Made by a program: the position numbers and the translations under genes. Shown piece after piece: positions 1-27,494 of a stretch of DNA of 64,000 nucleotides. This DNA is from Cyanophora paradoxa CCMP329 (taxonomy: Eukaryota; Plantae; Glaucophyta): contig QPMI01000578.1 in NCBI GenBank assembly GCA_004431415.1, positions 1 to 64,000 of the forward strand, in the 5' to 3' direction. The notes under the pieces were generated by a model, which worked only from the letters and a program-made list of their open reading frames with translations, ran no database searches and was not told where the DNA came from. How positions within the stretch are numbered: the stretch's first letter is position 1; each line of letters starts with the position of its first letter.

Positions 1-150
1 ATAGGTGGCTATGTTTACCATAGTGGTGAACATGCAGAATTCATTCAGATAATGACAGAAACCTGGTGATAAGGGAACTCACAGTTGAGTTTAAAGATTA
101 CTTTGTGAACTGATTGATATGAATGGAATCGTAATTTTTTCAGTTGGAGT

Positions 151-1703
151 TTATCGAATAAAGGCACCTGTAAAGTCAACTCTCATTGTGGAGCATTCAC
201 ATACACAAGGGGATAAATGCGAATATATTTAATTCTGAGAGAAAACCTATGTAAAAAGCATCCTTGATGCTGAGAGGAAATCCACTCAATAGAGCCACAT
301 CACCTGAGTTTGTGAGCATTGTTAATGTTCTCACAGACATATATTTTGTTTTGCCCATCTGATCGAATAAAAGACCAGTTGATCCCATCAGTGGATGTTG
401 CCACATTGAAAGTCTTAATAAAGCATTGGTGTCCCCTGAACCATAGGCAATAACAGAGGAGAGTTCGAAAGTATATGGGAAAGCAACTTGAAGGTATTCA
501 GTGGGGGTTTTCCCATATCTGCTCAGGAGCATAGGCTCCAGCTTCCAGCCAAATGCTGAAGGTCTAGCCATGAAAGGCTCTTTACCAGTCACAGAGGATG
601 AGGCAGTGAAGCATCATCTGCAAGCTGATACCAATTAGCATCCAAAGGTGGTGATGTAGTGAGAGTGGATGAAATGTAAGCCTTTGAAGGGTTCTTTAGT
701 TCATAGTTTGCTACTAGTAGGCTGCAAAGCTTATTGATTCATATCATTGTTTGCTGCAATGTAGGTTTCTGTGAAAGAAAGCATATCTGGGATTTTAGAA
801 GTGTCATCAAGGGAGCTAACTATATGGTTTGGAAGAGGGACCGATAGCCTATAGTATCTACCATAATCTTGATCATAGTTGTAGGTAACAACTCCTCCAT
901 CTTATCAAGGGCAGAAAGCTCACTTGCAGCCATGAGCATGTTAATCAATGGGCTTCCATCTGTTGAGGCAATCCATGAGAGAATTCCCCAGCTGTTCACA
1001 GTCTCATAAGCATAACCCACATAATCAGACTCTAAATGTGGGTCCACCTCACCACAAGAGATACTTATTACTATTATATCATCATCATCACTGTAAATCT
1101 TCTTTGCATGGCTGTAACCACACACACTGGGATTATTGTTTCCCGAAATGGCACCATCAATGAGACAGACAAATACTCCCCGATTGAAATCAACAATGCT
1201 TACAGGAGAGAAATATGTAGGAGCAGCAGAAGTAGCCCTAGCAGCAATCTTACAAGGCATAAAGTTGTAGTTGTTGTCATTTGTGATAAATATTGGTTTC
1301 ATATTCTGAGTATCAAAGGATGTAATCACAATGTCCTTTAGGGAATCCTGTATTAGTGATTCACCAGTAACTGAATTAATTGCAGTCTCCAAGGGTCCCA
1401 CATCATATTTTGTATTAAAAAGGGCATTTTCGATGATATTTCGAGGATTGCGAAAATCAAGGGCAGTTGAGTTAGGTAAATATTGTGTAAATCGTTTGCT
1501 GTCAGTTTAGGTTCACCTGGTTTATCAGGATGCCTGATATTCAAACCTATTGCAATGATCCCACCAGTGGAAGTTCCACTTACAAGATCCACAAGATCGA
1601 TTACTCTTCTGCCAGTTCGATTTTCGATTTCTTTTAGCAGCCTGGTTATGATAATGCCCCTTGCACCCCCGCCAGAAAGACTTAAAACGACCTTGAGAGG
1701 CAT
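151..1703 (-). pseudogene. Patatin-like phospholipase fused to C-terminal F5/8 type C (discoidin) domain; several frameshifts
   Basis: ORF 1353-1703 has LSLSGGGARG and GTSTG; ORF 820-1401 has ATSAAPTYF, DGA and VISISCG. A shifted frame gives SSLDDTS. Further down: EYLQVAF...SSVIAYG, IKTFNVATSTDGINWSF, KYIRIYP and MRVDFTG before TAA at 151-153, which are discoidin-domain hallmarks. Breaks may be assembly indels. Confidence 0.8.
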
Positions 1704-1746
1704 CTTTTACTTATCAAGAATTTTATAAATCCATATAGTAAAAGCC
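1704..1746. promoter_or_regulatory. 43-bp divergent intergenic region with inverted GTAAAAG motifs (candidate bidirectional viral promoter)
   Basis: CTTTTAC at 1704-1710 directly precedes the patatin ATG (minus strand) and GTAAAAG at 1738-1744 precedes the fibre ATG. The same motif recurs before the ATGs at 8329 and 9198. Confidence 0.5.
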
Positions 1747-4700
1747 ATGAGCTTCAATTACCCACCCAATCTAGAAACCATTCAAGATGATAATGCAAGC
1801 AGCACCAAGCATGTGAACTTTGATAATATTAAAGTAAAGGGTTCAGTTTCGATTGACCACAGCTCTGATAATTCATCAAAGACTCAATCAAGGGAGCATG
1901 CTTTATCTGTGAATCAAACCGATCCAGATAAAGAGGAGGTCAGTGTTGCTTTTAGTTTGGGTAATGTGAAAGCAAACCAAGTGGCAGAGATCAAAGCAAC
2001 AAGAAGGAGACCTAGGAAACTAAAAACCAGTGGCACTCACCCAGATATACCTTCCAGGTTCGATAGTGGTCGATTGATTTTCAATGTTCAAGATGAGCAG
2101 GCAAACAGAACACAGCTTTGCGAATTTACAATGAGGGCAGCACTGCAAAAGCTGAGGTCCCCCAAGTATTGCAAGTGGGTCCCATTGCCAACACAAATCA
2201 GGTCTCCTACACAAATGATGTCTACCCAAAGGATATTACATATGACTTTGCAAGGAATGAGCCTTTTGGGTCTTTACTCCAAAAGATGTCCATCAAAAAA
2301 AGCCATCAATTACAATCAACAGTAGCCCCAGTCAACCAGTAGCAATCCATTTACATCCTGATTTAGTCGAAATGGATAGGCACCTTTTGCCTTTGTATAG
2401 CAATGTGAAAGACCTTGGAATTCGAACCAGGCAATGGCGAAATATCCATGGCAGTAATGTGTATGCAAATGGTGAGAAGCTTGTAAGTGAGAAGACCATA
2501 AGAGAGATCTTTGAGTATTATGGACCTGTCCCAGTTCCCTTCCCTCTTCCATGGGATCCACCGGATTTAACACCAAAGAAGCAGCCTGGAAGAGAATACA
2601 CAGCAACTGAAGATGTAGCCTTTGGGCAGCATATTGTTAGTTGGGAGCAAGTTCGCAATAAACGATAATTGAACCCAGAAAGCAAATAGATGAGCAGTAT
2701 TTACCTCCTGAAGTCGATATTTTAGAGCTTGATGAATATCAATTCGTTCCAGATGAGGAGGAGTATTTACCAGATGGTTTTGACCCACAAGAATATGAAT
2801 ATGATCAGTATGACCCAATGAGGAGGAGATACTACCAGATGGCTTAGATCCTCAAGAGTATGAGTATGAGCAGAACTATGAACCTGATGAGGAGTATTTA
2901 CCAGATGGTCATGATCCACCAGTTGTTGACTATGAGCAACCTTATGAACCCCATGAGGAATTATTACCAGATGGATTTCGACCTGAGATCTGGGAGTTCT
3001 TTCCTGATTATGAACAAATTAATAATAAACCTGCAAAGTATCCCCCAGAGGATCACAATCATGATTGGGATGAGATCTTAGGCAAACCTCAAAAGTATCC
3101 ACCAGAGGATCACAGGCATGATTGGGGTGAAATTGATGGGATACCTACTGAGTTCCCACCAAGCAAACATGAACATATTTGGGATGAGATCAATGACCAA
3201 CCAGAATTTGCAAAGGTAGAGCCTCTTGATAACTTGGGGGTTTCTCTTTACCAGACTTGCAATGTCCCTGAAAGAATCTTTTTGAATGAACACTATGTAC
3301 ATGTGAATGGGACACTTGCGAATTCAGCTATGAGAGGACCACTTCATATTAGGACATTACCAGGCTCTTTTGAAACCCCACCACCACCAGGAGCAACCAT
3401 ACCAAATATCTTTGTGTCAAGCTACATGGAGGCTGACATTCCCACAGATACATTCAGAGTCCCAACAGACCCAGCAACCTACCAAAATTACAACTCTGCT
3501 ATACAGGTTCATGTAGCAGATGTAAGCAGCTTAGATGGCTCAAGACCAATGATAGTATTCAGTCGAGATAAATATTCCTACATTCCCATAGTGGGAACTG
3601 CAAATGATAACTATGGGAGGGCAGAGCTTGCATGGATTAAAACAGATTATGGTGGGGTTCTGGAAGCTAATCAGAGGATGGCTGCAAAAAACATACACAA
3701 TGAGAACATTTCGAGAGTGGTCACAGAGGATTACCTTACTGCAGTAATCCTTGTTAATTTTGTAACCCTTGCTATGCTTGATCAATTTATTACAGAAGCT
3801 GAACTTGCAGCAGAACTATCCAAATATCTCCCTCTTGTGGGTGGGACAATCACAGGAAACCTCACAGTTAATAGTAATATTTACAGCAGCAATATAGTGA
3901 CCAGCAACCTAAAAGTAAATGGAATCCTCACAATTGGCTCTTGCAATTTCAATACCATGAATCAGGTTTACGAAGAATGGTATGATGTCCCGCCAAGCTT
4001 TGATCCAGCATCAAATATCTCGAACTGCATTTTTGCTTGGAAGGCATCAGGAGTACCAGGTCAATCAGCAATGTATACAACTATAGTAAGCAGAGTCCCG
4101 AATTCAGTTGTTCCAGACTTGTTTATCTACGGAGCCAGTTCCTATTACACCAATCCCGAAATCAACAACCAAGTTAGTGTTTCAAGCCCAACAGGCACTT
4201 TTTATGCATATACCTCTGCTACAAGAACTATTGATTTCTCAAATGGGCTTACATTTTTCTTTGTGGGAAAATATCATCCAACTGCCTCTTCTATGCAAGT
4301 TCATTTGAGACTTTACAGAAGCACCTTTCCATCACGATATTGTTATTATGGGGCAACATCTTCTACTGCTATTGGAATGAACCAGTTTACTATTAATGGA
4401 GTATCCCAAAACCGCCCAGTTATTACGGTTCCTTCTTTAATAAATACATGGTATTACACTGACCAAACAATTACTTCCAGCAGCTACACAGTCGGGTTAA
4501 ATGGAGTAGATATTCAAACACTTGTAGGAACAAATTATCTACCAGATAATACTGTCAATCATTTCGGATTTGGTAATATTGTGAATGGTGGTATTTCCGA
4601 GTTGATTGTTTTCAATAGGGCTTTGACAACTTCTGAAAAGAATGCTGTGAGGTATTACATTCAACAAAAATATGGATTCACTCATACCCAGACTCTGAAT

Positions 4701-7700
4701 ATTTACAGAGGATTAAAAATAACCTCACCTGATACTGTAATAGATTACCTTACAGTTACAAGCAATGCAAATTTACCACATCATCCAACCTCTAATGTGG
4801 TTCAAGGTTGGATTCAAAATCACACTCACACAAAAGCCCAGATTACAGATTTTGCCCATACTCACACAAAAGATCAGATCACAGATTTCGCCCACACTCA
4901 TTTATGGGCAGACCTCACAGACAAACCGCTGACTTTTGCTCCTTCTGCGCATACTCACACAAAGTCAGAGATAACAGACTTTGCACACACTCATTTATGG
5001 GCAGACCTCACCGATAAACCATTAACGTTTGCTCCTTCTGCGCACACTCACACAAAGTCTCAAATTACAGATTTCGCCCATTCTCATACGAAGTCAGAGA
5101 TAACAGATTTCGCCCACACTCATTTATGGGCAGACCTCACTGATAAACCGCTCACGTTTACTCCTTCTGCGCACACTCACACAAAGTCTCAAATAACAGA
5201 TTTCGCCCATACTCATTTATGGGCAGACCTCACTGATAAACCGCTCACGTTTACTCCTTCTGCGCACACTCACACGAAGTCTCAAATTACAGATTTCGCC
5301 CATTCTCACACAAAGTCAGAGATAACAGATTTTGCACACACCCATTTATGGGCAGATCTCACAGACAAACCGCTCACGTTTACTCCTTCTGCGCACACTC
5401 ACACAAAGTCTCAAATTACAGATTTCGCCCATTCTCACACAAAGTCAGAGATTACAGATTTTGCACACACCCATTTATGGGCAGATCTCACAGACAAACC
5501 GCTCACGTTTACTCCTTCTGCGCACACTCACACAAAGTCTCAAATTACAGATTTCGCCCATTCTCATACAAAGTCAGAGATAACAGACTTTGCCCACACT
5601 CATTTATGGAATGACATCACAGACAAACCATCAACGTTTGCCCCTTCTGCGCACACTCATGATTACTTGCCTCTCACAGGAGGAACAATTTCCTCAAATC
5701 TTACGATTTCATCCAACTTGAATGTTATAGGAAAAATTCAAATTGGAGACAAAAATACAAACATTGATGTATACTATGACGCACCCTATTATCCTGTTAC
5801 TTCTAATACAGACCCCGCTTTTGCCATACCAGATTGCCTCTTAACAATAAGATTAGATGTTGTCCCTGTCGGCATAAACATCAGTCACGCCTTTATTGCA
5901 AATAGAGCAACTACGGCAATTCCCTTTATTTCCGGGGTAACCTTCCCATGGTCAGGATACAACACAATAACTCAATTGAGATCTGATTACAATAACCGAA
6001 ACATTGCCCAACAACCTACTTATTCATATACAAGCCGGGAATTTGGAATGCCGTATCCCGTAACTGTGGATTGGTCAAAAGGTATCACCATCTTCTTTGC
6101 AGGTTCTTATAGATTTTGGGGACCGTGGGTAGATCTCTTAAATTTTAGTTCACCAGATGGAACTAATAAAGTATCCTTTGGGACAACAGGTAGCAGTATG
6201 GGTATACATTCTTATACAAGCAATGGTGTGACTTACCCAGCAGCACACTTAAATTATCCCACATCGTATTCTGAGTTGTCGCCGAATCATTGGGACTTTA
6301 CAGTTTCTTCAAATGTCTGCACTTTCGGATTTAACGGACAAGATTTAGGCACAGTCATTACAGAAGTGGATTATCTTCCACCTTCCACTTTTAGTAGGAT
6401 GGGTGTTGCCTATTTCATTACGGCAGTAGGGGAATATATTATATTCAACAGAGCATTGACATTTGATGAAAGGCAAAAAGTGAGATATTATATGCAAGAT
6501 TATTTTGGCTTTCCAAAAAAGCAAACAATCGTTATTCCTGATAATCTACGCATTTCTGCTGAAAATGTTCATATTAGAAATTTAATCGTTTCTTCAAATG
6601 CAAGCATTCCAAACTATACCACATCAAATGTGGTTCAAGGTTGGATACAGAACCACACACCTGCGTGGTCAAATATCACAGACAAACCGTTAACGTTTGC
6701 TCCTGATGTTCATACTCACACAAAAGACCAAATATCAGACTTTTCCCATTCTCATTTATGGAATGACATCACAGACAAACCGTTAACCTTTGCTCCTGCT
6801 GCTCACTCTCATTTATGGGCGGACATCACAGACAAACCATTAACATTTGCACCTGCTGCTCACTCTCATTTATGGGCGGACATCACAGACAAACCATTAA
6901 CATTTGCACCTGCTGCTCATACTCATGATTGGATAGGTATTACAAATAAACCTTTGCTGTTTCCGCCCGATGCTCATACACACCCTTGGAGTAGTATAAC
7001 AGAAAAACCATTAACATTTCCGGCAACAGCTCACACTCATTTATGGAATGATATTACAGACAAACCAACATTTGCAACTGTTGCGACAACCGGAAATTAT
7101 GATGATTTAATTAACAAGCCAACATACACAGCGCCCACAAATTTTGACGCTACAAGTATTATTTCCACAGATCGCACAGGTGATTGGAGAAATTACAACG
7201 GAGGAATATTGACAGGGGACACAAATACTTGGGCGAACACATGGGCTGCTTCTGATGAAGATTGTAGTAGCTGTAAAATGTATTGGAATGTCCCAACAGG
7301 AATGAAATCTTGTTATATCTATTATGCTTGTCATTACAATTGTAGATACTTTGATGTGGTGGGAATTTATCCTCCAACAACTGTGTATACATATTTACGA
7401 GTAAATGCCTATTCTACTGCAATCGACCCATCAAAGGAATTCAAACAGTATGTTGGAATAAATTGTGAAGGACTAACCAAAGTTGGTGTTCATGGACAGA
7501 AAGGAAGAATTTATTTACCCGGTCCAATTGCTGTTGGATGGAGCAAAAACCCTGCTGTAACTTCACACAGTGGTTACTGTCATTGGGATAATATCTTCGG
7601 AAAACCAACAGCTTCAACATCTGTCGGTCCTCACTCACACAGCAAAGCAGATATCACAGATTTTGCACATACTCACACAAAGGCAAATATTACAGATTTT

Positions 7701-8279
7701 GCCCATACTCACACTAAATCAGAAATCTCAGATTTGCCTTCTTTTGATCCATTCACAGCCAATACGATCACAGCAAATAATACTATGTATGTAGGATCGG
7801 GTTCAATAGTAACTCCTGCATCACCCACAAACCAAGAAACATGGTTCTTCCACAATTCCGCAAACTTTTATGATAAAACACTGCTCTGTCGTGGAAATGC
7901 TTATGCAAGAGCATTTTATGCGATGAATGCAGGAACCACAAACACAATCAGCCAAGTTCCATCTTGGTATGATATAGAAAGACGTTTCAAATCAGGAAAA
8001 TATCAAGCCACAAGTGGTGTTATAAGCGCGGGTCAAACAACACAGCATGCATATGTTTTATATTGGGACCCACCTTTTTACACTCAGACACCTGTTGTAA
8101 ATGCCACACTTCAAGGAACTCCTGCAACAAACCCAGGGGATGTAGATTTTAGAATTGGAATCTCAAACTCCACAGCTAACTACACAACAATCTATGTGAC
8201 ATTCATAGCATCCCCTACTCTATCTGAAAGTCGAAGTATTACTTGCACAATCCATTGGACAGCATATGGAATCCCATAA
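1747..8279 (+). CDS. Giant fibre / receptor-binding-like virion protein (HxH tail-fibre repeats, two LamG/ConA-like domains, C-terminal H-type-lectin-like domain); 5' part frameshifted
   Basis: The frame of ORF 3234-8279 stays open upstream to ~2820 (EEILPDGLDPQEYE...KYPPEDHNHDWDEI). Fragments 1747-2325, 2118-2342 and 2372-2668 join by single-base shifts. Motifs: LLPLYSNVKDLGIRTRQWRNIH, YLPLxGGTI, HTHTKSQITDFA / HTHLWADLTDKPLTFAPSA repeats, two ExIxFNRALTxxExxxVRYY modules, terminal TPVVNAT...IHWTAYG. Confidence 0.8.
4820..5660 (+). repeat. Coding tandem array of 36-bp (12 aa) and 57-bp (19 aa) His-rich units within the fibre gene
   Basis: Near-identical units CACACTCACACAAAGTCTCAAATTACAGATTTCGCC and CATTTATGGGCAGACCTCAC...AAACCGCTCACGTTTACTCCTTCTGCG. 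A second, more diverged array lies at ~6650-7070 and a short third at ~7630-7730. Confidence 0.9.
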
Positions 8280-8328
8280 TAAATGCATATTTCGCATTAT
8301 TTTTCTTTCCTTCTTAGTAAAAGAAGCA

Positions 8329-9174
8329 ATGGGTGAATATAATCGAGTTCAACTGCCTATATATTCCCTTGGATCCCCTGCAATGCATTTTCGCCAGCAT
8401 GAAGTAAATGATGAGGTTCGTGGTTTAGAATCCACAGAGAGACCCAATTCCAATGGTAACTCCTTTGATAAAAATTCGATTATTCGAGTAAAAGAGCTGA
8501 GAGCTGATAAGAATTCTGGTGTGGTTAAAACAACTCGACTTCTTGTCACCAATGCTAACTTCTTCCAGCCTACAAATGGAGGTCCTGATGCTTACAGTGT
8601 TGCCCTGAAAGCCCTAGATTTCGACAAGAATACTGCTGCTGTTACTGTGAGATCAGGAGGAGCATTTATTGGGGGTGGCTGTCGAATTTCAGGTCAGCTT
8701 TCATCCTCAATTTCGTATAATGATGTCCCAGATACTCTAGAGCAAAATGTAGAAGACCCCCAACGAATTCGATTATATACTCCTGTTGCACAGCAGCCAT
8801 TAATTCAATTTTACATTGGATATACTGTTACTCTTGAAAACTCGGAATTAATTGAAGGAACCAAAAGAGTACTGAGAGGTCTTGCGATTCCATCTGCAAT
8901 GCTTTCCCTTTGTAGAGCCAACAACAATCAAGTAGGTCATAAATACTATTTCAATGTTCAGGGATATAATCATTTCGGTTATGGCTACTGTGTTTATAAT
9001 AATAATTTCACCTTTGACTTGTTTGTTACAGATATTGGGTTATATACTATAACTCTTATCGGTTTGAGAACAGATATAGCCGCTGTATCAGCTCTTAGAG
9101 GTGTAACTCCTGATACTCTTTCAGTTACAGGGTTTTACATGGAGCCAGATGTAATTGATGACCCAACCCCATAA
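8329..9174 (+). CDS. Hypothetical viral protein, fibre-accessory/structural-like (paralogue 1)
   Basis: Intact ORF; ATG 8329 preferred because it does not overlap the fibre gene and follows GTAAAAG. Shares ELRxDKNxGxVKTTxLLVTNANF and SGGAxIGxGxR with the next gene. Confidence 0.7.
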   Translation: MGEYNRVQLPIYSLGSPAMHFRQHEVNDEVRGLESTERPNSNGNSFDKNSIIRVKELRADKNSGVVKTTRLLVTNANFFQPTNGGPDAYSVALKALDFDKNTAAVTVRSGGAFIGGGCRISGQLSSSISYNDVPDTLEQNVEDPQRIRLYTPVAQQPLIQFYIGYTVTLENSELIEGTKRVLRGLAIPSAMLSLCRANNNQVGHKYYFNVQGYNHFGYGYCVYNNNFTFDLFVTDIGLYTITLIGLRTDIAAVSALRGVTPDTLSVTGFYMEPDVIDDPTP

Positions 9175-9197
9175 AAGATATATCCCTTTAATGTAAA

Positions 9198-10030
9198 ATG
9201 GCTGAGCAACCCCCACTTGAACGAATTATTACACCTCAACTATCATTAGCTGCCCCAGCAAACCATGTTTTACAGCATGCTACCTTTGATGATGTAGAGG
9301 GTCTCCAATCCACAGAGGTCCAACCTACAATGAACACCTTTGGTTCCACCACAAACTGAGATTACAGGAACTCAGATGTGATAAAAATAATGGAATAGTT
9401 AAGACAACTAAGCTACTTGTCACAAATGCAAACTTTTCTGCTCATTATGGAGACCCAGATAGCTATGGAGATCCTCTGTCTACTTATTCTTTTGAATCTA
9501 GGTCGGGAGCTATTAACTGCAAATCGGGGGGAGCATATATTGGGGATGGTCTTAGGGTTGGTGGGGCTGTTGGAGCGCCTTTATTTGTGAATGATCAACC
9601 CAATCCTATTGATCCCAATACAAGAATTCGAACCTATGTCCCCAGCATGAATGCCCCATACATTATAAAGATATTCCCCATTGTTGTAAATGAACAAACA
9701 GCAGTAGTAGACTCTCTTGTTGAAATTGGTGACCACTACAAGGTAGTTGTGGATATCCCACCAGATGTATATGCTGTATGTCAAGTAGAGGGTGGAACTC
9801 CTAATTTTGCAGTTGTGATCACCCCATATGATAATTTTGGTATTGCTTATCATGGAGTCAATTTCGGTTTGGAAGACTATCAGTTTCTGGTGAGAGCCAC
9901 CAAGTTTGGTATCTACAAGTGTGTATTATATGCTGAGAGAACCGATTTTATTGCAAGGCAGAATACCTATGCTGAGTATTATGGCACAAATCGATATTTC
10001 CCCATTTTTGGACAGGATACTGCTCCATAA
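9198..10030 (+). CDS. Hypothetical viral protein (paralogue 2), frameshifted near 9350-9390
   Basis: MAEQPPLERIITPQL...VEGLQSTE...LQELRCDK...VKTTKLLVTNANF...KSGGAYIGDGLRVGG runs into ORF 9587-10030 (ends YAERTD...) and aligns by eye with 8329-9174. Confidence 0.68.
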
Positions 10031-10052
10031 GAATATTGGTTATATATAGAGT

Positions 10053-10325
10053 ATGGATAGTAAAACAAAAAAGTTTATTGATGCTGCTATGACAGTTCAT
10101 GGTAAAGATAAATTCGATTACAGTGAGACACATTACATCAAAGCTCAAGAGAAAGTATCTGTGAGATGTTTGCAGTGTAATAAGGTGATCCTTACCTATC
10201 CCTTTAATCATGTGAAGGGATCAGGTTGCAGGGACTGTAACAAAAGAAAGAGTCAAGCACACAGGAAAAGAGCTACTTCATCAATCAGAGTAGAGTATAG
10301 GGATATTTGCATTAGGTTTGACTAG
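10053..10325 (+). CDS. DUF723-like Zn-ribbon protein (type associated with homing endonucleases of large DNA viruses and phages)
   Basis: KFIDAAMTVHGKDKFDYSETHY...KVSVRCLQC...PFNHVKGSGCRDC pattern, basic C-terminus, no nuclease domain. Confidence 0.7.
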   Translation: MDSKTKKFIDAAMTVHGKDKFDYSETHYIKAQEKVSVRCLQCNKVILTYPFNHVKGSGCRDCNKRKSQAHRKRATSSIRVEYRDICIRFD

Positions 10326-10348
10326 TTAATTTTTCTAAGGTATTCTTA

Positions 10349-10747
10349 ATGGAGACTAAATACAGAGGCTTTCATGTTATGCTTGATTACAAGGCTAAAT
10401 CAGCTATAGCAACAGGTTATGAGCATGTTAGCTTCCTAGGTAATTGGATTATGGGAACCCTTGAACAAGCTATACTGAGACAAGGTATTAGGATTGTTCA
10501 TAAACACTGTGAGATATTTGATGGCAAAGTATCACCTCCTGGGTTTGCATTAGTTCTGCTCTTAGATGAAAGCCATTGCACAGCTCATTGTTATTCCAAT
10601 GAAGGCATGTTAGCAATTGATATATTCAGTTGTGGTAAAGAAGCTCAGCATAAAACACAATCTGTTGCAGATGAGATCGATAAAACAATGAATTTCCTCA
10701 CATTTGAGAAGACTGAGAGACATAAACATGATAGATTCCCGTTTTGA
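10349..10747 (+). CDS. speD: Prokaryote-type pyruvoyl-dependent S-adenosylmethionine decarboxylase proenzyme (SpeD/SpeH family)
   Basis: GFHVMLD, F...PPGFALVLLLDESHCTAHCY..EGMLAIDIFSCG: ESH self-cleavage site and DxFxCG motif; 132 aa. Confidence 0.88.
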   Translation: METKYRGFHVMLDYKAKSAIATGYEHVSFLGNWIMGTLEQAILRQGIRIVHKHCEIFDGKVSPPGFALVLLLDESHCTAHCYSNEGMLAIDIFSCGKEAQHKTQSVADEIDKTMNFLTFEKTERHKHDRFPF

Positions 10748-11179
10748 TGGGTTTCTATAATGAATTTCTAAAGGATTCCTTTGTTTTCTAACAATAACAT
10801 TGATAAGCTACTGTAACAAAAAGATATAATATATCCTTTCACTACAGTAGCTTTATACAATGATTATTTTCCGGATTCCGGACATTTTTTACGATAGAAT
10901 TCTATTTTAAGTAATTGGAATAATGTTCGATTTCATTACAGTAAAATTCAACATTCCCCTAGATTCCCCCTATTACCCTATTATTTAAGTGGACTCAAGG
11001 TTGACTCATATTAATCGTAAAAGTAGTAAAAGTATATGGATTTTGTTACGAATTCAATGCAAGGGTTGACTAAGTGGGTTGAGTTGACTCAAATTTCACA
11101 GGAAATAACAATGAATCAGAGTATAAATGCATTTTTTGAATCAACTACACCAACTAACACTGAGATTTTAACAATATAT

Positions 11180-11477
11180 GAGATCCTTACTGAATATGGT
11201 AAGTGTCACAGGTGTCACAGGTCTATCCCAAAGTTTCTCCTATAAAGAGTAAATTTTCAAAAGTTTGGGATGGACCTGTGACACCTGTGACACTCGATTA
11301 TTTAATTTGTTTATTCAATTAGAAATACATAGATAAGATTATTACTGAGTTTTCATTATAAAAGAGATCCTTACTGAATATGGTATGTGTCACAGGTGTC
11401 ACAGGTCTATCCCAAAGTTTCTCCTATAAAGAGTGAATTTCCAAAAGTTTGGGATGGACCTGTGACACCTGTGACAC
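11180..11477. repeat. Two direct copies (11180-11293, 11364-11477; period 184 bp) of a palindromic origin-like unit
   Basis: Each copy has GTGTCACAGGTGTCACAGGTCTATCCCAAA, an AT-rich spacer, then TTTGGGATGGACCTGTGACACCTGTGACAC: a 30-bp stem with one mismatch. Confidence 0.92.
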
Positions 11478-11730
11478 CCAATTATTCATTAAATTCTTAA
11501 GGGACCCCCTTAGACTCAATAAAACATGATAAAAACATATCAATTTCATGTATAATTACGATTGGATTCAATAAGAGATCTATTTGTTTAATTAAACAAA
11601 TGAATCTCATATAGATATTAATCGAGTTAAGCGATATGTTTCCGATTAAATGAATTAAATTTAATTAAATTTAATCGAGAAAGTACATGAATATAATATC
11701 GATTAAATCAATTAACTTTTAGACCAATCA

Positions 11731-12011
11731 CACATAGTAAAATGCGGAGTTTTAACCAGAGGCAAGATCTAATTGAGATTCAGTTATATTATTCGGAAAT
11801 ATATAGAGATTATCGATAGACTCAGTAAGACTAATCGGAAAATAAGAGAAATTTACGATAAAATATCGAAAAGAATACAAAATAATCGAAATAATTGAAT
11901 ATTCGATAAGATATACACAGATTATCGATTGATTGAAATAGAATATACGAGATATATCAACAAAATCAATTAAGATAAGCCGAGGGTTAAAACTCCGCAT
12001 TTTACTATGTG
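11731..12011. repeat. Terminal foldback: perfect 27-bp inverted repeat enclosing an A-rich imperfect palindrome
   Basis: CACATAGTAAAATGCGGAGTTTTAACC (11731-11757) and GGTTAAAACTCCGCATTTTACTATGTG (11985-12011). Inner arms keep register with matches GGC, TAATTGA, TCG, ATCGATA, GTA and ATCG. Confidence 0.92.
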
Positions 12012-13544
12012 TTACGGTGTGGCCCTACACCTTCATCTAACCCTGCGAGATTTAACAGGCCGTCCAGGCGGCCAGTCGGTCAAGAACGTGGATCAGCTCA
12101 AGTACCTGTTCCCCGACCAGGACAACGACCTGAACGGCGCCGAGAGCCCGATGCTCGAGTGGACTGACATGGATCTGAGCCTCTACGGCTTCAAGGACGC
12201 GATCATCTACTGGCCCAAGGTGTCCTACCACGGCGGGGCAGGCCAGAAAGCTGACAGTAAGCTTGAGGCCATCTCTTGATCGTGATTCTTTTCGGAAAAG
12301 GTCTAATGCGGCCCGCGCGCGCCTTGCAGAGTACAACATCACCCTCTTCCGTTACATTCGCGGCGCGAACGGCTACGCCCCCGACAAGTACCAGAACTTC
12401 TACGTACGTTCTGATTCGGTGTAGCTCCGTCGCTGCCTGCGATCAAGTTCTCACAAGTTCCGTTAGGTGGCCGGCACCGTCGACGGCGACGTGAACTTTG
12501 CGTACGCGACCAACATCCAGCCCTCGCACTGCGTACGTATACGCCCCATGCCTAGGCCTTTCCATACTATAGGCTATAGATATATATTGCTAGTGGCGCC
12601 CGAACCCTCGGCGATAAACTTATATGAGTCGTATTAGTACTAGTGATGCCCTATCCCTCCCTGACTTTCCTTGCCAGTACGGGATGGGGCTCAAGCTCTG
12701 CAACTCGGTCGGCTGCTGCTCCCCCAGCAGCAATCCGCTCGAGAGCAGCGTCCCCTTCACCACGGAAGACGGCAAAGTCCTGGCCCCCATCGGTGACTCC
12801 ACCTGGTTCCAGCCGTGTACGCCCGGCCCATCCTCCCGCGCTCCTTGCTCTCCCGCTTAAGCTTGGCACTGACGCCTCCACGTCGACCGCAGCCCAGAAC
12901 TACGCGAACAAGAACTCGCGGGAGCCGACCGACCGCGGGTACTGCGTGGCCATCAAGCCCATCGGCGTCGTCACCAAGTCGCTCGTCGGCGCCGTCGACT
13001 TCAGCGGTGTCCCGGCCGAGGCCGCCACCACTACCGGTACCGCCGGCTCGGCCGCCCGCTCCGCCTCGACCGCCTCGTCCTCGGGCACCTCCAACACACT
13101 CCTCGCCGTCGCCATCGGTTCGCGCCGGCCTCTCAGATATCGTTTAACACTGCATTAGTAATCCGTGCCCGTTTCTTACCGCCCCGTCTCCTCGCAGCCG
13201 TCCCCGTCGGCATTGCGGGCCTCGCCATCGGCGCCGTGCTCGCCGCGATGGTCATCACCCGCAACCAGGTCCGCGCCGCGACCATGGCCGCCGTTAGCGC
13301 CGGCAGCCGCGGCCAGACCCTGGTGCGCGATTTCGATCCGTGCACGTGTTAACGTTTCTCCTCGTTCTTTTCTGAACGCCCCCCGCAGAACATCCAACCG
13401 GCCTCGAACGCCTCGTTCGACCCGCACCCGCGCCCGGCCTCAAATGTCATGCTCATGGGCTCCGAGGAGTCGGCCCACACGCATGGGCACGAGTCCGCCA
13501 ACATGCGGCACCGCGAGGCGGCCGCCCCCGAGTTCGACGTGTAA
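12012..13544 (+). pseudogene. 3' half of a host FN3-family type I membrane protein gene interrupted by the viral element
   Basis: Exon-by-exon paralogue of ~25051-26403 (GGQSVKxVDQLK, YGFKDAxxYWPK, YNITLFRYIRGANGYAPDKYQ, TM AVPVGIAGLAIGAVLAAMVIT, end PEFDV*). Begins 5 nt before a GT donor. Confidence 0.88.
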
Positions 13545-14049
13545 ACCGCGCGCGCCCGCAATTCTTGAAGCAAGTAGCCTTTGACAGTTGACCTATAGCT
13601 ATTAGAACGATCGCGTAGCGATCAAATTTTAGGCCGCGCGCGTAGTTCTGCGTTAGTTTTCTAGATCGCGATCGGCACGCCCAGCTGCCGGCAGGCAGCT
13701 CACGTCCTGTCACGGTCCTGATCAGGCCGCTCATGATCGATATCAGCACTGCACTCTCTGTCAACAATCGATCTAATCATAACAATCATGTGTCTGCAGT
13801 TTATAATCAGAAGCTCTACATGTAGCAGAGTATATGTCCATTGCTCGCAGCCCTAGTTGCAATCTCTTAATTATAAAACGGGGCCCTACCCCGCCTACGG
13901 TACCGGTACTAGTGCTCGGATTGAATACAACATGAACAGTGGGACGTCGACTTGCCTGGGCATCTCCCAGGCCTAGGTCTATCATAGTATCGTTGCTGGC
14001 ATGGTAGGGCCGGGACCTACTCTAATAAATGCTTACTAACTATAGCCGG

Positions 14050-14946: not shown

Positions 14947-15654
14947 ATGTGGAAATAACTGGAGAAGCTACCCCGGGGATTAATTCTAGAGCTGCAGTAC
15001 AAGAAAGATCCTACGCGGGGAGGGGAGTGACTACCCAAGGACGAGGATAGAGATCAGGGGTGGACAGCGAAGTGAGCTGCAGCTGTAGCTATGCCTAGTA
15101 AGCTAGGGCCTCCGGGAAGGCGCACTATAATCTAAACCACTCTGTACACGCTAGAGTACGGCCCGCCGTGTCGCCGGCACGGCGGGCACGGGCTCAGCGG
15201 CTGGGGGCTCGCTCGTCCAGGAGCGGGCCTGATGGAGCCGCCGGGCTCAGAGTATCGGGAAAGGTGTGGTCGGGGAAGAGGGGGACGGGGGGTACGGAGT
15301 GGAAGGGCGTGGGGCGGTGGGGAGTGGCGGGAAGGGACCGGGTCGGGAGGCCGCGGTCGGGAGGAGGGAGGTTCCAGTGGCGCGTTCCGCCGGGCTTCCA
15401 GCCGCCCGCCGGCCGCCTCCCCCCCGCCGCGGGCAATGACGAGCCCCCCTCCGCGGCGGTCTGACCGCCCCGGCCTGGCTCGTGGCCGGGGCGGGTGCAG
15501 GTGGGTTCAGCGGCCGACAGACGACCTTCCGTCCGGCAGCCCGCACCACCGTCCCCTCCCTGGTGTAGCGGGGGATCAGCACAATGGGCAGAGGCGGAAG
15601 GGGTGAAGGGTGGGGTCGTGATTAGACCCCTCCTTGCACATCCTGAGACGAGCA

Positions 15655-17070
15655 GCGCGGCGCGCCTCCGGGATCCGCCCCGCCCGGCGAGCCGCGCCGC
15701 CGCCCGCGGCGCCTCCGCCCGCCCGGCGAGCCGCGCCGCCGCCCCCGCGCCTCCGCCCCGCCCTGCGAGCCGCGCCTCCGCCCCGCCCGGCGAGCCGCGC
15801 CACCGCCCGCCGCGCCTCCGCCCCGTCCCGCGAGCCGCGCCTCCGCCCGCCGCACGCCTCCGCCCCGCCCGGCGAGCCGCGCCGCCGCCCGCCGCGCCTC
15901 CGCCCCGCCCGGCGAGCCGCGCCGCCGCCCGCCGCGCCTCCGCCCCGCCCCGCGAGCCGCGCCGCCGCCCGCCGCGCCTCCGCCCCGCCCGGCGAGCCGC
16001 GCCGCCGCCCGCCGCGCCTCCGCCCCGCCCGGCGAGCCGCGCCGCCGCCCGCCGCGCCTCCGCCCCGCCCGGCGAGCCGCGCCGCCGCCTGCCGCGCCTC
16101 CGCCCCGCCCGGCGAGCCGCGCCGCCGCCCGCGGCGCCTCCGCCCCGCCCGGCGAGCCGCGCCGCCGCCCGCGGCGCCTCCGCCCCGCCCGGCAAGCCGC
16201 GCCGCCGCCCGCCGCGCCTCCGCCCCGCCCGGCGAGCCGCGCCTCCGCCCCGCCCGGCGAACCGCGCCGCCGCCCGCCGCGCCTCCGCCCCGTCCCGCGA
16301 GCCGCGCCGCCGCCCGCCGCGCGCCTCCGCCCCGCCCGGCGAACCGCGCCGCCGCCCGCCGCGCCTCCGCCCCGTCCCGCGAGCCGCGCCTCCGCCCGCC
16401 GCGCCTCCGCCCCGCCCGGCGAACCGCGCCGCCGCCCGCCGCGCGCCTCCGCCCCGCCCGGCGAGCCGCGCCGCCGCCCGCCGCGCGCCTCCGCCCCGCC
16501 CGGCGAGCCGCGCCGCCGCCCGCCGCGCGCCTCCGCCCCGCCCGGCGAGCCGCGCCGCCGCCTGCCGCGCCTCCGCCCCGCCCGGCGAGCCGCGCCTCCG
16601 CCCCGCCCGGCGAGCCGCGCCACCGCCCGCCGCGCCTCCGCCCCGTCCCGCGAGTCCCGCCGCCGCCCGCCGCGCGCCTCCGCCCTGCCCGGCGAGCCGC
16701 GCCGCCGCCTGCCGCGCCTCCGCCCCGCCCGGCGAGCCGCGCCGCCGCCCGCGGCACCTCCGCCCCGCCCGGCGAGCCGCGCCGCCGCCCGCCGCGCCTC
16801 CGCCCCGCCCGGCGAGCCGCGCCTCCGCCCCGCCCGGCGAGCCGCGCCACCGCCCGCCGCACCCTCGCCCCGCCCGGCGAGCTGCGCGCCGCCCGCCGCG
16901 CCTCCGCCCCGCCCGGCGAGCCGCGCCTCCGCCCCGCCCGGCGAGCCGCGCCACCGCCCGCCGCACCCTCGCCCCGCCCGGCGAGCTGCGCGCCGCCCGC
17001 CGCACCCTCGCCCCGCCCGGCGAGCTGCGCGCCGCTCGCCGCACCCTCGCCCCGCCCGGCGAGCCGCGCC
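15655..17070. repeat. GC-rich minisatellite, 40-bp core unit
   Basis: CGCCCCGCCCGGCGAGCCGCGCCGCCGCCCGCCGCGCCTC tandemly repeated with shortened and +2 variants. Confidence 0.93.
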
Positions 17071-18185: not shown

Positions 18186-18437
18186 CACAGCTCGTTTTTT
18201 TCCCCAATCGACTCGACATGCCCGTTGTATGGGCAAGGGCAGCGCTAGCCGGTGATCACGATAACTTTTCACCCGCTTTGAGCCGGCTAGTGCGCCAACG
18301 TCAGCGTGCACGTAGCCGGCAAGCTACCGGGTAGATTAGTGCTAGCCCGGTCCCAGCTAGCCGAAGAGCGATTTCATTTTAACCGGTTTTCAGCCTGTTG
18401 GGTGAACTTGGGTCGACCGGTAAAAAAACGAGCTGTG
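18186..18437. mobile_element. MITE with CACAG termini and 2-bp TSD (CACTA/CMC-like)
   Basis: TIR CACAGCTCGTTTTTTT / AAAAAAACGAGCTGTG; AG on both flanks. Confidence 0.72.
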
Positions 18438-19000: not shown

Positions 19001-19448
19001 CACAGCGGAACGGCGTTGTATGGCGCCCTATACGCTGAAGGAAAAAAGTCTTCTATGTAAATCGTTAACTTAAATCGTGTGTTCGCGTTACTGCAAAACT
19101 GGGCGAACTCGACTTGAACTTTGACGTACCCCCCTTTTGGACTTGGTCGCGGCGCCGCGCGGCGCAACGAGCTCGCTGAGCATGCATCAACCAGTGCCAC
19201 CATGCATAGAAGTTGAAGATCAATCATTGAACGCATCATAGACGCGTTGGCCGGCGGCTCCGATCCTACGTTTGGACGTTCTGTCTAACAGAAGTTCGAA
19301 CTACTTTTTTTCCAACGGCTTCCGACTTCTTCCCCCCCGTTAATTTTCCAAGTTGAATATGTTTCAAATATATATTAAGCTCTAATAGACTTGACTTGAA
19401 AAATTAAACTTGAGCGTATAGGGCGCCATACAACGCCGTTCCGCTGTG
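19001..19448. mobile_element. MITE with 36-bp perfect TIRs, CACAG termini, 3-bp TSD (CACTA/CMC-like)
   Basis: CACAGCGGAACGGCGTTGTATGGCGCCCTATACGCT (19001-19036) and its exact reverse complement (19413-19448); ATC on both flanks. Confidence 0.88.
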
Positions 19449-22164: not shown

Positions 22165-22369
22165 CTCCCGAGTCCCGACTCCCGAGTCCGACCGTCCGAC
22201 CGTCGGACGGTCGGACCGTCGGACGGTCCTGCGGACCTTAAAGCCCACGCCGTGTGACGGTCTGCCCACTGCCCAGTGCCCAGTGCCCAGTGCCCACCCC
22301 TACTAGTACTTGGAGTCCCCGGACTCGCGATCGGCGGCCTCGCGATCGGAGGCTCGGACGGTCGGACTA

Positions 22370-22659
22370 CCGTCGGGCACCGCGGCACTAAATTACCGCG
22401 CGCGGCATGAATTACCGCGTTAGAAACTCCGGCACGAGGCCTAGGGTGGCCAAAATACCGCGGTACCAAATTACCGCGTTTTAAAAATCTTGAGGCTTGT
22501 TTGGGGCAGTAATTGTGGGGGGTACTGTATGGAGCAACTTGTCTGCAGCTTGTTACCGCGGTACCAAATTACCGCGTTTTAAGTTAACTTAACAAATTCT
22601 CGACGCGGTAATTTGGTACCGCGGTAATTAAGTGGGTGCGGTATTTATGTGTTCTACGG
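22370..22659. mobile_element. Probable Tc1/mariner-type MITE with AAATTACCGCG internal repeats
   Basis: TA|CCGT...ACGG|TA ends; repeated CGCGGTACCAAATTACCGCG in both orientations; related diverged sequence at ~20213-20395. Confidence 0.5.
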
Positions 22660-23011: not shown

Positions 23012-26000
23012 ATGAAGAACGCCCGTGCGGCTCTTCTCGTCGCCCTCGGGCTCCTGGCCCTGGCGACTGGCGCCGTCGCAACTTGCGTGGCTCCCCCGCC
23101 ATTCGAGAACACCGGCCGGAACGCCGCGCAGAACTGTTACAGGTTCAATCTGGTTCAATTACGTGAGCCTCCAGGCCTTTGACTCTGTTTGCGTTCAGGT
23201 CTACTTGCGATGACACGAACTGCTACATCATTTGCAGCGCATCTCTGTCCAAGGACACAGGCGGGAGCAAATACGAGGCTGTGTGCGTACTCGTCAATGC
23301 TGTGCTGTCGAATCGTGTGGGTGAACGGCTCCTGACGTCCGGGCGCACAGCAAGCCCGACTTGTTGAGGGTGTGGGTGACCAAACCCGGCGTCGGCAACA
23401 CTCTCGGAACCACCGCAGACCCAGACGTCCTGGTGTACGGACAAATTCGTACGAATATCCTCAATGAGGAGCAGCTCGCGGAGGGCGGAAAGGTCACAAT
23501 CACGACACTTACGCACACCACGGTTGCCGCCGATAAAACGTACTACCTCCTTACCTACAAGATCTCCTTCTCGAAGAACAGCGAGGTTGCGCGCTGCTCC
23601 TCCAAAGTCAAGAACTTTATTCTCGTGCGTTCAGGGCGCTGCTTTGCTGTTCCATCTCGCTAACGCGTATCAGGGCGGCACCGATTGCGCTAACACGGAT
23701 GTCGAAGCGTGGGCAGTGGAGAACAGCGGACAGCTCGCGACCGAGTTTCTGCAGCCCACTGGTGGCCTTGATGGCACCGTGAACGTTAATTGCATGCCCG
23801 AGCCTACGCCGACCCCCAGTCCGTCGGCGCTGCCGCCGCCGCCGGGCCCTGACTCCACTCCGGAGCCGCCGCCGCCGAAGGTTCTGTACCCGCCGGAGGA
23901 TGTGAAGATCAACCCCCTGGCCTTCAGCTACGATACCGGCTACCCGGCGACCGTCTCCTGGACGCCTTCCACGCAGACGAACGCAAAGACCGAGGGCGTT
24001 TACGTGCGCCCTCAGTTTGAAACATAATTATTGATTGAAATTGTGCTGACCAGGCTTTGCGCATGCGCAGTACAAGATCGATATCCTCCCTCGTGCGCTC
24101 GCCTCTGTGCGCTTCTCCGTCTTGCGCATGCGTTGACCCCGCATTCGCTTGCAGCCTCGAAGCCTGATGATATTATGGTCTGCCCTTACGCGTCTAGCCA
24201 TCCGGCTCACAACCAGAACCTCACGGAGACCGGCACTGCTGATATTGATCCAGCGGTTAGCCCGCAGAGCGTCAACTACCTCTGCCCCGGTTAGTAGTTT
24301 TCGGATATTCCATTCGTGTTCCGTGTCAAGTCTCACATTCGTTTAGGCTACACCTACACGGTTATTGTCGCTGCCTGCACCGACAGTCCTGTCGAGTGCA
24401 AGTCGGCTACGGTCACCCGCACTATGTCGGGTTCGCACGTGCTTTAGTGCACTCCACCCTAGGTTCCAGCGTGCATTGAGATCTTTGGCAGCCGTGGCAC
24501 CGACGATTCCGAAGTGGAACAACGCCCCCATCGAGCCGACCGCCGCTGACTTCACCTTCCCGGCTGGCACGGCAATCACCGCCTCCCACAATGCCAGCTA
24601 CGACGGCGGCAAGCCCCTGACTAGCTACACCGTTACGCTGACCCCCGTCGGCACCGAGGCGGGTTGCCCCGGCACCACCCACGACAAGTCCCCGTTCGAG
24701 GCCGTGGATGGCGTCTTGACCACTAACACTCTGAACACTGGCCTGTCCGTCAGCACCTACCTTTGCCCTGGTATGCGATTTTTGATCGACTTTCGATCTA
24801 CACTGTCTTGCTTACTCGCTTCTGCAGGCAACAGCTACACCCTGGCCGTGAAGGCTTGCAACGCCGAGTACTGCAGCGATGCTGCTGCATTCCCCGGTGC
24901 CGGTGGCATCGACATGACCACCGTCACTGCTCCTGGTGCGCCGTCTTTTTGACGCGTGCTTCCCAGTTTTGACGAGCCGCTTCCCGCAGCTGTGGCCCCT
25001 GTCTGCGGCGTGCCCCTTCCGGCTACGGTGCCCAGCTACATTTCCGGGCCTTATGGTTCGTCGTCGACATAATGTATGCCACGATATTTTTGGTTGTTGA
25101 CATGGGCTCAGGTGGCCAGTCGGTCAAGAGCGTAGACCAGCTCAAGGCGCTGTTCCCGGATATCGAAGGCGAAAGCCCGCTGCTCGAGTGGAGCGACATT
25201 GATCAGACCCTCTACGGCTTTAAGGACGCCGTCGTCTACTGGCCGAAGATGGCTTACCAGGGCGGTGCCGGCCAATCTGCGTCAAGTGCGAACTCTATGC
25301 TGGTGCTGCCGAACCGCTAAGTTCTAGCTCTAATGAAAAACTGCTGTTGCACAGAGTACAACATCACCCTCTTCCGTTACATCCGCGGCGCGAACGGCTA
25401 CGCCCCCGACAAGTACCAGACTTTCTACGTGCGCCCACGCTGCTCGAACCTCGCGCCCATGATCCCATCGGCCGGGCGATGACCGGGTGACCGCGTAGGT
25501 GGCCGGGACTCTTGTCGACGACGCCGTCAACTTTGCGTACGCGACCAACATCCAGCCCACGCACTGCGTACGCTCCACCTCCCCCCGGGATCCTCTTCCC
25601 CGGTGAGCTTATCCCTTGCGTCCTCAGTACGGGATTTCCGTCAAGATCTGCAACGCTGTGGGCTGCTGCACCCCCAGCTCCAACCCGCCCACTAGCACGG
25701 CCGACACCACGGCGCCGAATGCGTGGTTCCAGCCTTGTGCGCTCCTCTGGTTGTGATTTGACTCTCGCATCTGTGTCGCTTACTCCTCCACTTCGACTGC
25801 AGCCCAGAACTTCGCGAACAAGAACTCGCGCGAGCCGACCGACCGCACTTTCTGCGTCGCCATCAAGCCCCTCCGGACCACGTTGTCCACCACCATCAAG
25901 TCCATCGGCATTGACTTCGGCTCGTCGGGCGCTGGCGTCGCCGACGCGAGCTCGGCCGCCGCCGCTCGCTCCGCCTCGACCGCCTCGACCTCGGGCACCT

Positions 26001-26403
26001 CCAACACACTCCTCGCCGTCGCCATCGGTGCGCGCCGGCCTCTTCATCGCAATCCGTGTCCGGTTCTTACTGTCTCCTCGCAGCCGTCCCCGTGGGCGTT
26101 GCGGGCCTCGCCATCGGCGCCGTGCTCGCCGCGATGGTCATCACGCGCAACCAGGTCCGCGCCGCGACTATGGCCGCCGTCGGCGCCGGCAGCCGCGGCC
26201 AGACCCTGGTGCGCGATTTCGAGCCGCGTTTCTCCTCGAGCTCGTTCTTTTCTGAACGCCCCCCGCAGAACATCCAGCCGGCCTCGTTCGACTCGCGCCC
26301 GCGCTCGGCCTCGACGGTCATGCTCATGGGCCCCGAGGAGGAGGCCCAGGAGGCCGCCAACATGCGCCACCGCGAGCCGGCCACCCCCGAGTTCGACGTG
26401 TAA
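23012..26403 (+). CDS. Type I membrane protein with signal peptide, Pro-rich linker and fibronectin type III-like domains (multi-exon)
   Basis: MKNARAALLVALGLLALATGAVA signal; PEPTPTPSPSALPPPP; VSWTP, YTVIVAAC, YTVTLTP, YTLAVKACNAEYCS; TM AVPVGVAGLAIGAVLAAMVIT; stop at 26403; many short introns. Confidence 0.78.
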
Positions 26404-27494
26404 ACCGCGTCTGCTCCCAGCTTTATCTTCTCTTCTTAATTCGGCCCGACACTGTGACATGCGCGTAGTGATCAACAGTTAGGCCGCGCGTAGCTTTGCG
26501 CTTAGTTTTCTAGAACGGCTTGTACAGTGCAGAGCCGATCGCGACGTCATTTTATAAGTGGCAATCGGCTCAAGCACAGGATTCCCATGTTTGCCTGCTC
26601 GATTTGTAGTAAGTGTGCTTCGTTAAACGTTTCAACGCGCGTAGTGCTTGCAATCGCCATTCAGAACTCTTCCGCGGAGCTCTCCATCATAATTTCTTCA
26701 GCCAGCAGCTGTGTACATGTGTCAGTGGGAACCTGTCCTAGCATGTAAATGCTTTGGCTTTTCCCAGAGTCTGTGTGCCCTAGGCTTGTTGTGCAGTAGC
26801 TCAGCGGCTTAGCCTGCAGCGTTCACCCCGATTCAGCCCTAGCCTGTTACTTCGAATTTCTGAGAAAAATGCAAAAACACAATCATTCCGATGATTCCAG
26901 TGGCCTGAAAGCTCGTTCTCGACCGGTACCGTTCCACAGCTCATGATCATGATCACCTGCCACATGTACGTGTACATCGATATCATATGATCAACCAATT
27001 CGTCTACCTCGGGCGCCCCCCGAGCTCGAGCTAGCGTTCGAGGTCCGACGGTCGCGACGAGGCGCCGGCGTTTTATACGATAGGCGCCGGCCGCGGCACC
27101 CTGTCGCTCTAGATCTAGATCTCTAGATCGATCATCGGATATACTAGACTGATATATCTCACGCGTACGAGTGTAGTCAAGCTGCAGCTGCGCTAGCTAT
27201 AGCGCTAGGTATACGTAGCGCTGTATACGTAGCTAGCCGCGCGCTTACTAAGTTAACTAGCTTGCGAACTTTTCAAGTTTCGGATCCGGAACGCTGCGGC
27301 CGGCGGCGGCGCCGGCCGCGCGCGGATCGATATCCGCCGGGCCGGACATGTCGCCAGCTGCAGCGCCGCAGCGGCAGTTGCACTTGCGCGTCTCTTCGCG
27401 CTCTGCGCGGGCGGCGATAACTTAGGTTGCAGAGAGCGAGAACTTCGCCGAGAAGAGGGGGGGGCCGGGGGGGGGGGGGGGTAGAGGCCAACCC

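Follow-up and report, generated by a model that had tools for sequence, protein, structure and literature searches.

The 281-bp unit at positions 11731-12011 of the 64,000-nucleotide stretch of Cyanophora paradoxa DNA analyzed here (the window) is read as one end of an endogenous DNA virus present in many copies, likely polinton- or virophage-like, where the A-rich strand likely folds back into a self-priming hairpin, and we give this reading about an even chance of being correct. The fold-back sequence sits at the exact tip of an integrated virus-like element, and the 3' end of the top strand coincides with the base of a perfect stem, which is the geometry required for self-priming. The unit is present as a single copy within the window, and its parts and immediate surroundings are as follows.

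1-12011, no strand assigned: visible right-hand part of a virus-like insertion, AT-rich (~40% GC) and densely packed with genes, that extends past the window start
11731-11757, plus strand: inner arm of the perfect closing stem of 27 bp, or 28 bp counting 11730
11758-11776, plus strand: imperfect stem extension that pairs with 11966-11984 through helices of 3, 3 and 7 bp separated by purine-rich loops
11777-11965, plus strand: A-rich core with a CG dinucleotide every ~20 nt, a weak palindrome plus a diverged direct duplication with a lag of ~112
11985-12011, minus strand: outer arm of the closing stem and the element's last bases, the T at 12012 being either viral or host
12012-13668, plus strand: 3' portion of a host gene rich in introns, interrupted by the insertion near an exon end

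The original prediction described a perfect 27-bp inverted repeat around an A-rich interior, in a unit of 281 bp lacking a TSD of its own, and all of this stands. The arms (11731-11757 and 11985-12011) are present exactly as claimed, and the closing stem reaches 28 bp once the A at 11730 pairs with the T at 12012. A 19-mer of the arm has two matches in the window, both of them the arms themselves, with a chance expectation of 0.01. The interior of 227 nt consists of 107 A, 60 T, 37 G and 23 C, and its GGC/GCC and TAATTGA/TCAATTA motifs pair in exact register. The arm pattern had 0 matches in viral contigs and 40 single matches in metagenomes, all of 25 nt or less and none with a second arm, which were taken as chance.

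Folding of the single strand in comparison with shuffled controls, proposed as a check on the hairpin, gave -48.9 kcal/mol for the whole unit (z -10.5, matched by 0/200 shuffles); this signal comes mostly from the closing stem, the interior alone having a z of -1.77 (10/200 shuffles). The earlier statement that the two halves of the interior stay in register is borne out, with gaps allowed, for the outer ~60 nt, where 7/2000 shuffles did as well, and does not extend to the inner part (699/2000). Without gaps, the interior pairs at 34 of 113 positions, which is the chance level (770/2000 shuffles as good). When the interior was forced into a rod with gaps allowed, 65 extra pairs formed at -14.1 kcal/mol, versus -3.9 +/- 2.4 in shuffles (0/500), and the rod on the opposite strand came to -12.0, a value reached by 1/500 shuffles. 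The rod is better than 226/226 rotations, yet the best rotation comes to -13.7 versus -14.1. Purines account for 79 of the rod's 97 unpaired bases. That pairing continues past the perfect arms, and that the rod beats 500/500 shuffles, both argue for a fold-back.

In the ensemble of the folding model, the outer 40 pairs are reliable and the inner rod pairs have probabilities of at most 0.04. Within the stem extension at 11758-11776, pair probabilities are 0.87-1.0 in 12 of the 13 pairs and 0.48 in one, and for the core at 11777-11965 no one fold is favored; the branched minimum (-48.9) is more stable than the rod (-40.7). A Y-shaped 'rabbit-ear' fold was also considered (-37.7) and is not favored. 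The modeling thus predicts an outer stem of 40 pairs interrupted by purine-rich loops, with a core that is loosely folded. Variant positions within the unit are few in number and lie mostly in the loops.

The interior also contains a direct tandem duplication with a lag of ~112, absent from the original prediction, which scores 54 (9/2000 shuffles), compared to 36 for the inverted match (21/2000). Cross-pairing of the core halves, at -10.6, is no better than their self-pairing (-10.0 and -14.2). Since the direct duplication outscores the inverted match and cross-pairing has no advantage, the symmetry of the core may be a by-product of duplication. Four of the five CG dinucleotides in the left half have a mirror partner (18/10000 shuffles), a pattern that was spotted after the fact. 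A core that is a tandem duplication and folds weakly would be consistent with an accidental origin, in which a chance fold-back or duplication at one founder copy's end produced the inner arm and core, both without function; for the palindromes of Halocafeteria, accidental annealing is offered as an alternative in the available text of 10.64898/2026.07.28.741278. We consider such an accident highly improbable here, as the arms stay perfect and are common to a subfamily (described below) whose core has diverged beyond alignment.

The DNA to the left of the unit contains long intron-free frames, and GC content steps from 0.30-0.42 to 0.59 at ~12 kb. The following genes were annotated in the visible part of the element.

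734-1703, minus strand: patatin-like phospholipase gene (PF01734), frame-broken in this assembly
1747-8279, plus strand: very long fibre-like gene with phage-tail repeats (PF12789, E 2e-9) and LamG-like domains
8266-10030, plus strand: two tandem ORFans (8266-9174 and 9198-10030, the latter frame-broken), paralogous by eye
10053-10325, plus strand: zinc-finger-like piece of the kind seen in HNH endonucleases (PHROG 559, 681 and 4605, E ~1e-8)
10349-10747, plus strand: S-adenosylmethionine decarboxylase (AdoMetDC) gene (PF02675, E 5e-11), the last gene before the terminus

The patatin-like gene has 80 homologues at 25-42% identity and the AdoMetDC gene has 10 at 41-61%. The fibre-like gene, the 5' part of which is frame-broken in this assembly, matches tail and fibre PHROGs, and its residues 1-499 were assigned Laminin_G_3 in 6/10 sampled matches. 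For the first tandem ORFan (a 302-aa ORF), no homologues were found and the atlas leads were weak, at 0.80 or below; a 124-aa ORF yielded a predicted fold at pLDDT 33. Queries with AdoMetDC or patatin found no related loci, an alignment query for such loci retrieved one weak locus at 33% identity, and 10 window proteins searched against an exact-match collection gave 0 hits. Seven frame changes were inferred in the element's genes, all in the same direction, which fits consensus errors of a multi-copy repeat better than decay; such errors are known in multi-copy elements of this kind, per the accessible part of PMC10120064.

Genes for a capsid, replicase or integrase were not recognized among the ORFs of the visible 12 kb. 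At 1-229, a frame-broken gene end looks by eye like what we take to be the C-terminus motif of a polinton-like virus (PLV) or virophage penton, and pieces of it had no match in Pfam or PDB. The element has the accessory traits of PLVs and virophages, namely fibre, LamG and lipase genes and a GC content below that of the host, which are supportive and not exclusive to PLVs; fibres with phage-tail repeats, LamG domains and patatins occur in PLVs, according to the available portion of PMC12220804. We also observed that AdoMetDC is the terminal gene of this PLV-like element, and that the word 'decarboxylase' is absent from the main text of the survey of cryptophyte PLVs. The element looks more like a small high-copy polinton-like virus than a one-off captured giant-virus telomere.

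Between the AdoMetDC gene and the unit lie several further palindromes.

11202-11294, no strand assigned: origin-like palindrome 1, with 35-nt arms and a 23-nt spacer
11387-11477, no strand assigned: origin-like palindrome 2, which repeats palindrome 1 in direct orientation at 184 nt
11559-11682, no strand assigned: two small imperfect AT-rich palindromes (11559-11624 and 11639-11682) in a CpG-enriched zone

The twin palindromes are ~92 bp each and lie 250-530 bp inside the element end. The spacers of palindrome 2 appear to differ between genomic copies, as judged by variant letters and loose ends at 11413-11450. The arm pattern of the twin palindromes matched 21 loci in prokaryote genomes and a further 6 in viral contigs, and as a side observation this motif (loci L042-L068) recurs in phages and integrative elements of distant prokaryotes. 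The neighbors of these 27 loci were scanned for up to four open frames within 600 bp (L042 in part), and a primase/helicase-family gene was found at most 600 bp from the motif at 14/27, a raw count without a formal control that includes related genomes, two of the loci (L043 and L060) appearing to be the same element. The genes are of D5, VapE or DUF927 type at nine of the 14 loci and of AAA_25 type at five, all Amycolatopsis; the motif lies 3' of the gene in 13/14. The remaining 13 of the 27 loci have unrelated neighbors or no match. This sequence pattern suggests that the twin palindromes are primase-helicase origin sites, and no paper describing the motif was found in the published literature.

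The sub-terminal zone with the two small palindromes at 11559-11682 has a CpG observed/expected ratio of 2.6, and across the terminal 470 bp (11540-12011) the ratio is 2.2-2.6, compared to 0.2-0.36 in the rest of the element and 1.1-1.2 in the host. This enrichment may mark a methylation-sensitive or methylation-protected binding zone.

Copy number and orientation were assessed on short-read contigs. The stretch or part of it occurs in 20/21 runs, all from one organism, and four runs were compared, which are not independent of each other and may include the source of the window. Run X21, which has no words in common with the stretch, was left out and counts neither way. Inferences on orientation and ends assume 31-mer graph contigs, from which the assembler may prune branches, and rest on the contig pieces and loose ends among those listed. 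The junction contig (11986-12356) is present in 4/4 runs without differences and at single-copy depth, and the element-host junction is real. Single contigs from the terminal region reach 74, 125 and 169 times the depth of the junction contig, and 65-134 times that of the host paralogue (values that GC bias may inflate), from which we infer roughly 65-170 copies of this end per genome. The viral-side flank at 10900-11730 is also high-copy, so the unit is not a stand-alone MITE. In one run (X2), the main contig at 11729-11817 runs uninterrupted across the inner arm's edge, indicating that host DNA is not commonly joined there, which argues against both stand-alone copies and a reversed core. 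Stand-alone MITE copies with unrelated flanks, the case named beforehand as counting against a viral end, accordingly left no sign in the contigs among the pieces listed. At 10975-10986 the contigs vary and some diverge, which could mark where a ~1-kb TIR ends on its inner side.

A divergent subfamily occurs at 7-13 times single copy in all four runs, and its similar ratios across runs suggest integrated copies rather than fluctuating free virus. In run X2 its contig covers 11728-12012, oriented as in the window, with ~125 unalignable letters replacing 115 of the core. Judging by its contig ends, the subfamily retains the inner arm and a similar unit length though 115 nt of core fail to align, and this apparent conservation argues for the fold-back reading.

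The conservation of length and stem over core sequence would also suit an opened telomere of a giant virus of the pox-, asfar- or chlorovirus type, with flip and flop isomers, since there too structure is kept over sequence per the available text of PMC8956199; such telomeres are AT-rich, incompletely paired hairpins, and that of Kaumoebavirus is 102 nt long and incompletely paired per the available text of PMC7909422. Nevertheless, no flop form was seen: contig break points, among the pieces listed, point to one orientation of the interior, the main contig being unbroken across 11729-11731 and the subfamily contig at 11728-12012 having a single orientation. Additionally, ~100 ends per genome fit a small virus better, and no NCLDV core gene was found among the ORFs of the visible 12 kb. 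We therefore regard a giant-virus telomere as very unlikely. The original proposal of an opened hairpin telomere was right in placing the unit at the end of a virus-like element, for which a fold-back is the best reading, and the flip/flop forms that it had put forward did not appear among the contig pieces listed.

On the host side, the interrupted gene (12012-13668) has 71-83% identity to an uninterrupted paralogue at ~25109-26517, contains a 51-nt GT-AG intron at 12017-12067, and aligns with the paralogue at the T of 12012 as well. When contigs were mapped on the paralogue toward the other junction and a TSD, the paralogue itself was the sole return. The regions at 12012-13668 and ~23500-26500 are tandem, intron-rich host paralogues of a probably membrane-anchored family with more members in the contigs. 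Elsewhere in the host DNA, a GC-only tandem array (>90% GC) with a 20/40-nt period lies at 15650-16960, and a host GPI ethanolamine phosphate transferase (PIG-O/PIG-G-like) and a glycosyltransferase lie at 27495-31189 and 34295-35343.

The T at 12012 bears on where the element ends. Subfamily contigs end at 12012, including the T, in all four runs, and subfamily copies would hence have that base in common. The start of the junction contig implies four letters in common with another junction, which is likelier with a fixed T (0.52-0.83) than without it (0.07-0.17), a weak indication. The element begins CAC if it ends at 12011 and ACAC if it ends at 12012, and a T common to a subfamily of ~10 copies weakens the idea of a CAC-ended transposon. 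That idea, the second explanation originally offered, holds that the virus is a composite transposon with a CMC/CACTA-type MITE at its tip, mobilized by a host transposase; Teratorn is a precedent for a fusion of a virus and a DNA transposon. Two host elements in the window (18186-18437 and 19001-19448) do begin CACAG and have 2-bp and 3-bp TSDs, as had been noticed in part, and the arm likewise begins CACA, while a random site of the same composition would begin CAC at a probability of ~0.005. These MITE-like elements have perfect TIRs of 16 bp and 36 bp, and the one at 18186-18437 has a second look-alike pair near 22186-22627. The support for the transposon is this CAC coincidence, against which stand the absence of a TSD from the unit, the absence of any sign of stand-alone copies among the contig pieces listed, the difference between the arm and the host MITE ends past CACA, and the 28th pair and the subfamily's T, which suggest an ACAC end. 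Transposase families matched 0/92 ATG ORFs of at least 100 aa in the window, a weak test given the introns of host genes and the possibility that the enzyme is encoded elsewhere. A composite transposon thus appears unlikely to us.

Under the preferred fold-back reading, the 3' end of the A-rich strand would pair with the inner 27-bp copy, and the resulting structure would prime or cap replication of the excised linear viral DNA. The twin palindromes would serve as primase-helicase origins, in which case a protein-primed polymerase would play no part and the virus would need another solution for its ends. One fixed orientation is not the outcome of simple hairpin resolution and counts against a fold-back; it could be kept by asymmetric resolution or by a circular intermediate. 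Some parvovirus left ends are resolved asymmetrically and have a single orientation.

The fixed orientation is accounted for more simply if the unit acts as a double-stranded module, in which the arms are sites for an integrase or tyrosine recombinase, the core is an unwinding or iteron zone beside the origin palindromes, and the virus excises as a circle, which keeps one orientation trivially. The T in common at +1 and the sign of four more letters would fit, weakly, a short att-type core, and the unit's own core is a direct duplication in which CG motifs recur at regular intervals. However, recombinase arm pairs usually flank a core of 6-8 bp, whereas here they enclose 227 bp, and binding sites need neither imperfect helices continuing the stem nor a purine-only loop bias. 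Precedents for such a module are the inverted repeats at phaeovirus att ends (PMC13236599) and those of PLVs (PMC11296320), as far as the accessible text of each describes them. We consider the double-stranded module, the main rival of the fold-back, possible and rather improbable.

Returning to the self-priming fold-back, its boldest form would be a small integrating eukaryotic DNA virus with giant-virus-like, mismatched hairpin ends of 281 nt, held in one orientation and integrated in opened form at dozens of sites, with phage-type primase-helicase origin palindromes. We advance this form tentatively and are inclined to doubt it as a whole. If true, the 281-nt hairpin end would represent a design between parvovirus, poxvirus and polinton termini, and screens for palindromes that admit only short gaps would not see such ends.

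A literature search with thin coverage of subscription papers and bioRxiv supplements turned up no description of a long, imperfect hairpin at the end of an integrated PLV or virophage. No comparable end in PLVs appeared in the available portions of PMC12747079, 10.1101/2025.10.09.676808, 10.64898/2026.10.09.758095, 10.1101/2022.07.28.501842, 10.64898/2026.10.13.758929 and PMC3431310, and the supplements of PMC12220804 contain neither the end motif nor the words hairpin or palindrome. The comparisons below rest on the accessible parts of the papers cited.

With the telomeres of vaccinia virus, ASFV, PBCV-1 and Kaumoebavirus LCC10, the unit as modeled has in common an AT-rich fold-back, extrahelical loops and a perfect closing stem (PMC7909422, PMC8956199). 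In free genomes, NCLDV hairpin telomeres occur in both flip and flop forms (PMC7909422, PMC8956199, PMC11814242), and unlike them (102 nt in Kaumoebavirus) the Cyanophora unit is 281 nt long and appears in many integrated copies, seen in a single orientation. The unit is also like the PLV 'end module' and phaeovirus att ends in having inverted repeats at an integration boundary (PMC11296320, PMC13236599); the inverted repeats of the end module were proposed as both a recombinase substrate and a primase-helicase origin (PMC11296320), and phaeovirus att ends carry such repeats (PMC13236599). In contrast to the end module, the Cyanophora end has no tyrosine recombinase or primase-helicase gene, and its repeat is a long nested fold-back. 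The host CMC/CACTA-type MITEs at 18186-18437 and 19001-19448 resemble the unit in their CACA start, similar length (252-448 bp) and terminal inverted repeats, but they have TSDs and stand alone, whereas the unit lacks a TSD and is joined to a viral body.

A further comparison is with Halocafeteria seosinensis, in which terminal palindromes were described in endogenous virophages (subtypes 1, 2, 5 and 6) and PLV subtype 4, at the tips of their TIRs, with a proposed role in hairpin priming that was linked to non-pPolB replicases (10.64898/2026.07.28.741278). As in those tips, the Cyanophora fold-back forms the very end of a small, AT-rich DNA virus integrated in its host. In the visible part of the Cyanophora element, no TIR, whole-element TSD, capsid or integrase was seen. 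The case illustrated for Halocafeteria is a 52-nt palindrome, from a screen with a gap limit of 10 nt, whereas 227 nt of mismatched, A-rich interior separate the Cyanophora arms, and that screen would consequently miss the unit, which is not a short near-perfect palindrome with a gap of at most 10 nt. On our best reading, the unit works like a Halocafeteria-type tip without being classed as one, and it is neither a flip/flop telomere nor a MITE. It suggests that such ends are under-counted by short-gap screens, and with a long mismatched fold-back, origin-like palindromes and ~100 ends in one organism, it makes the hairpin-priming model testable by long reads.
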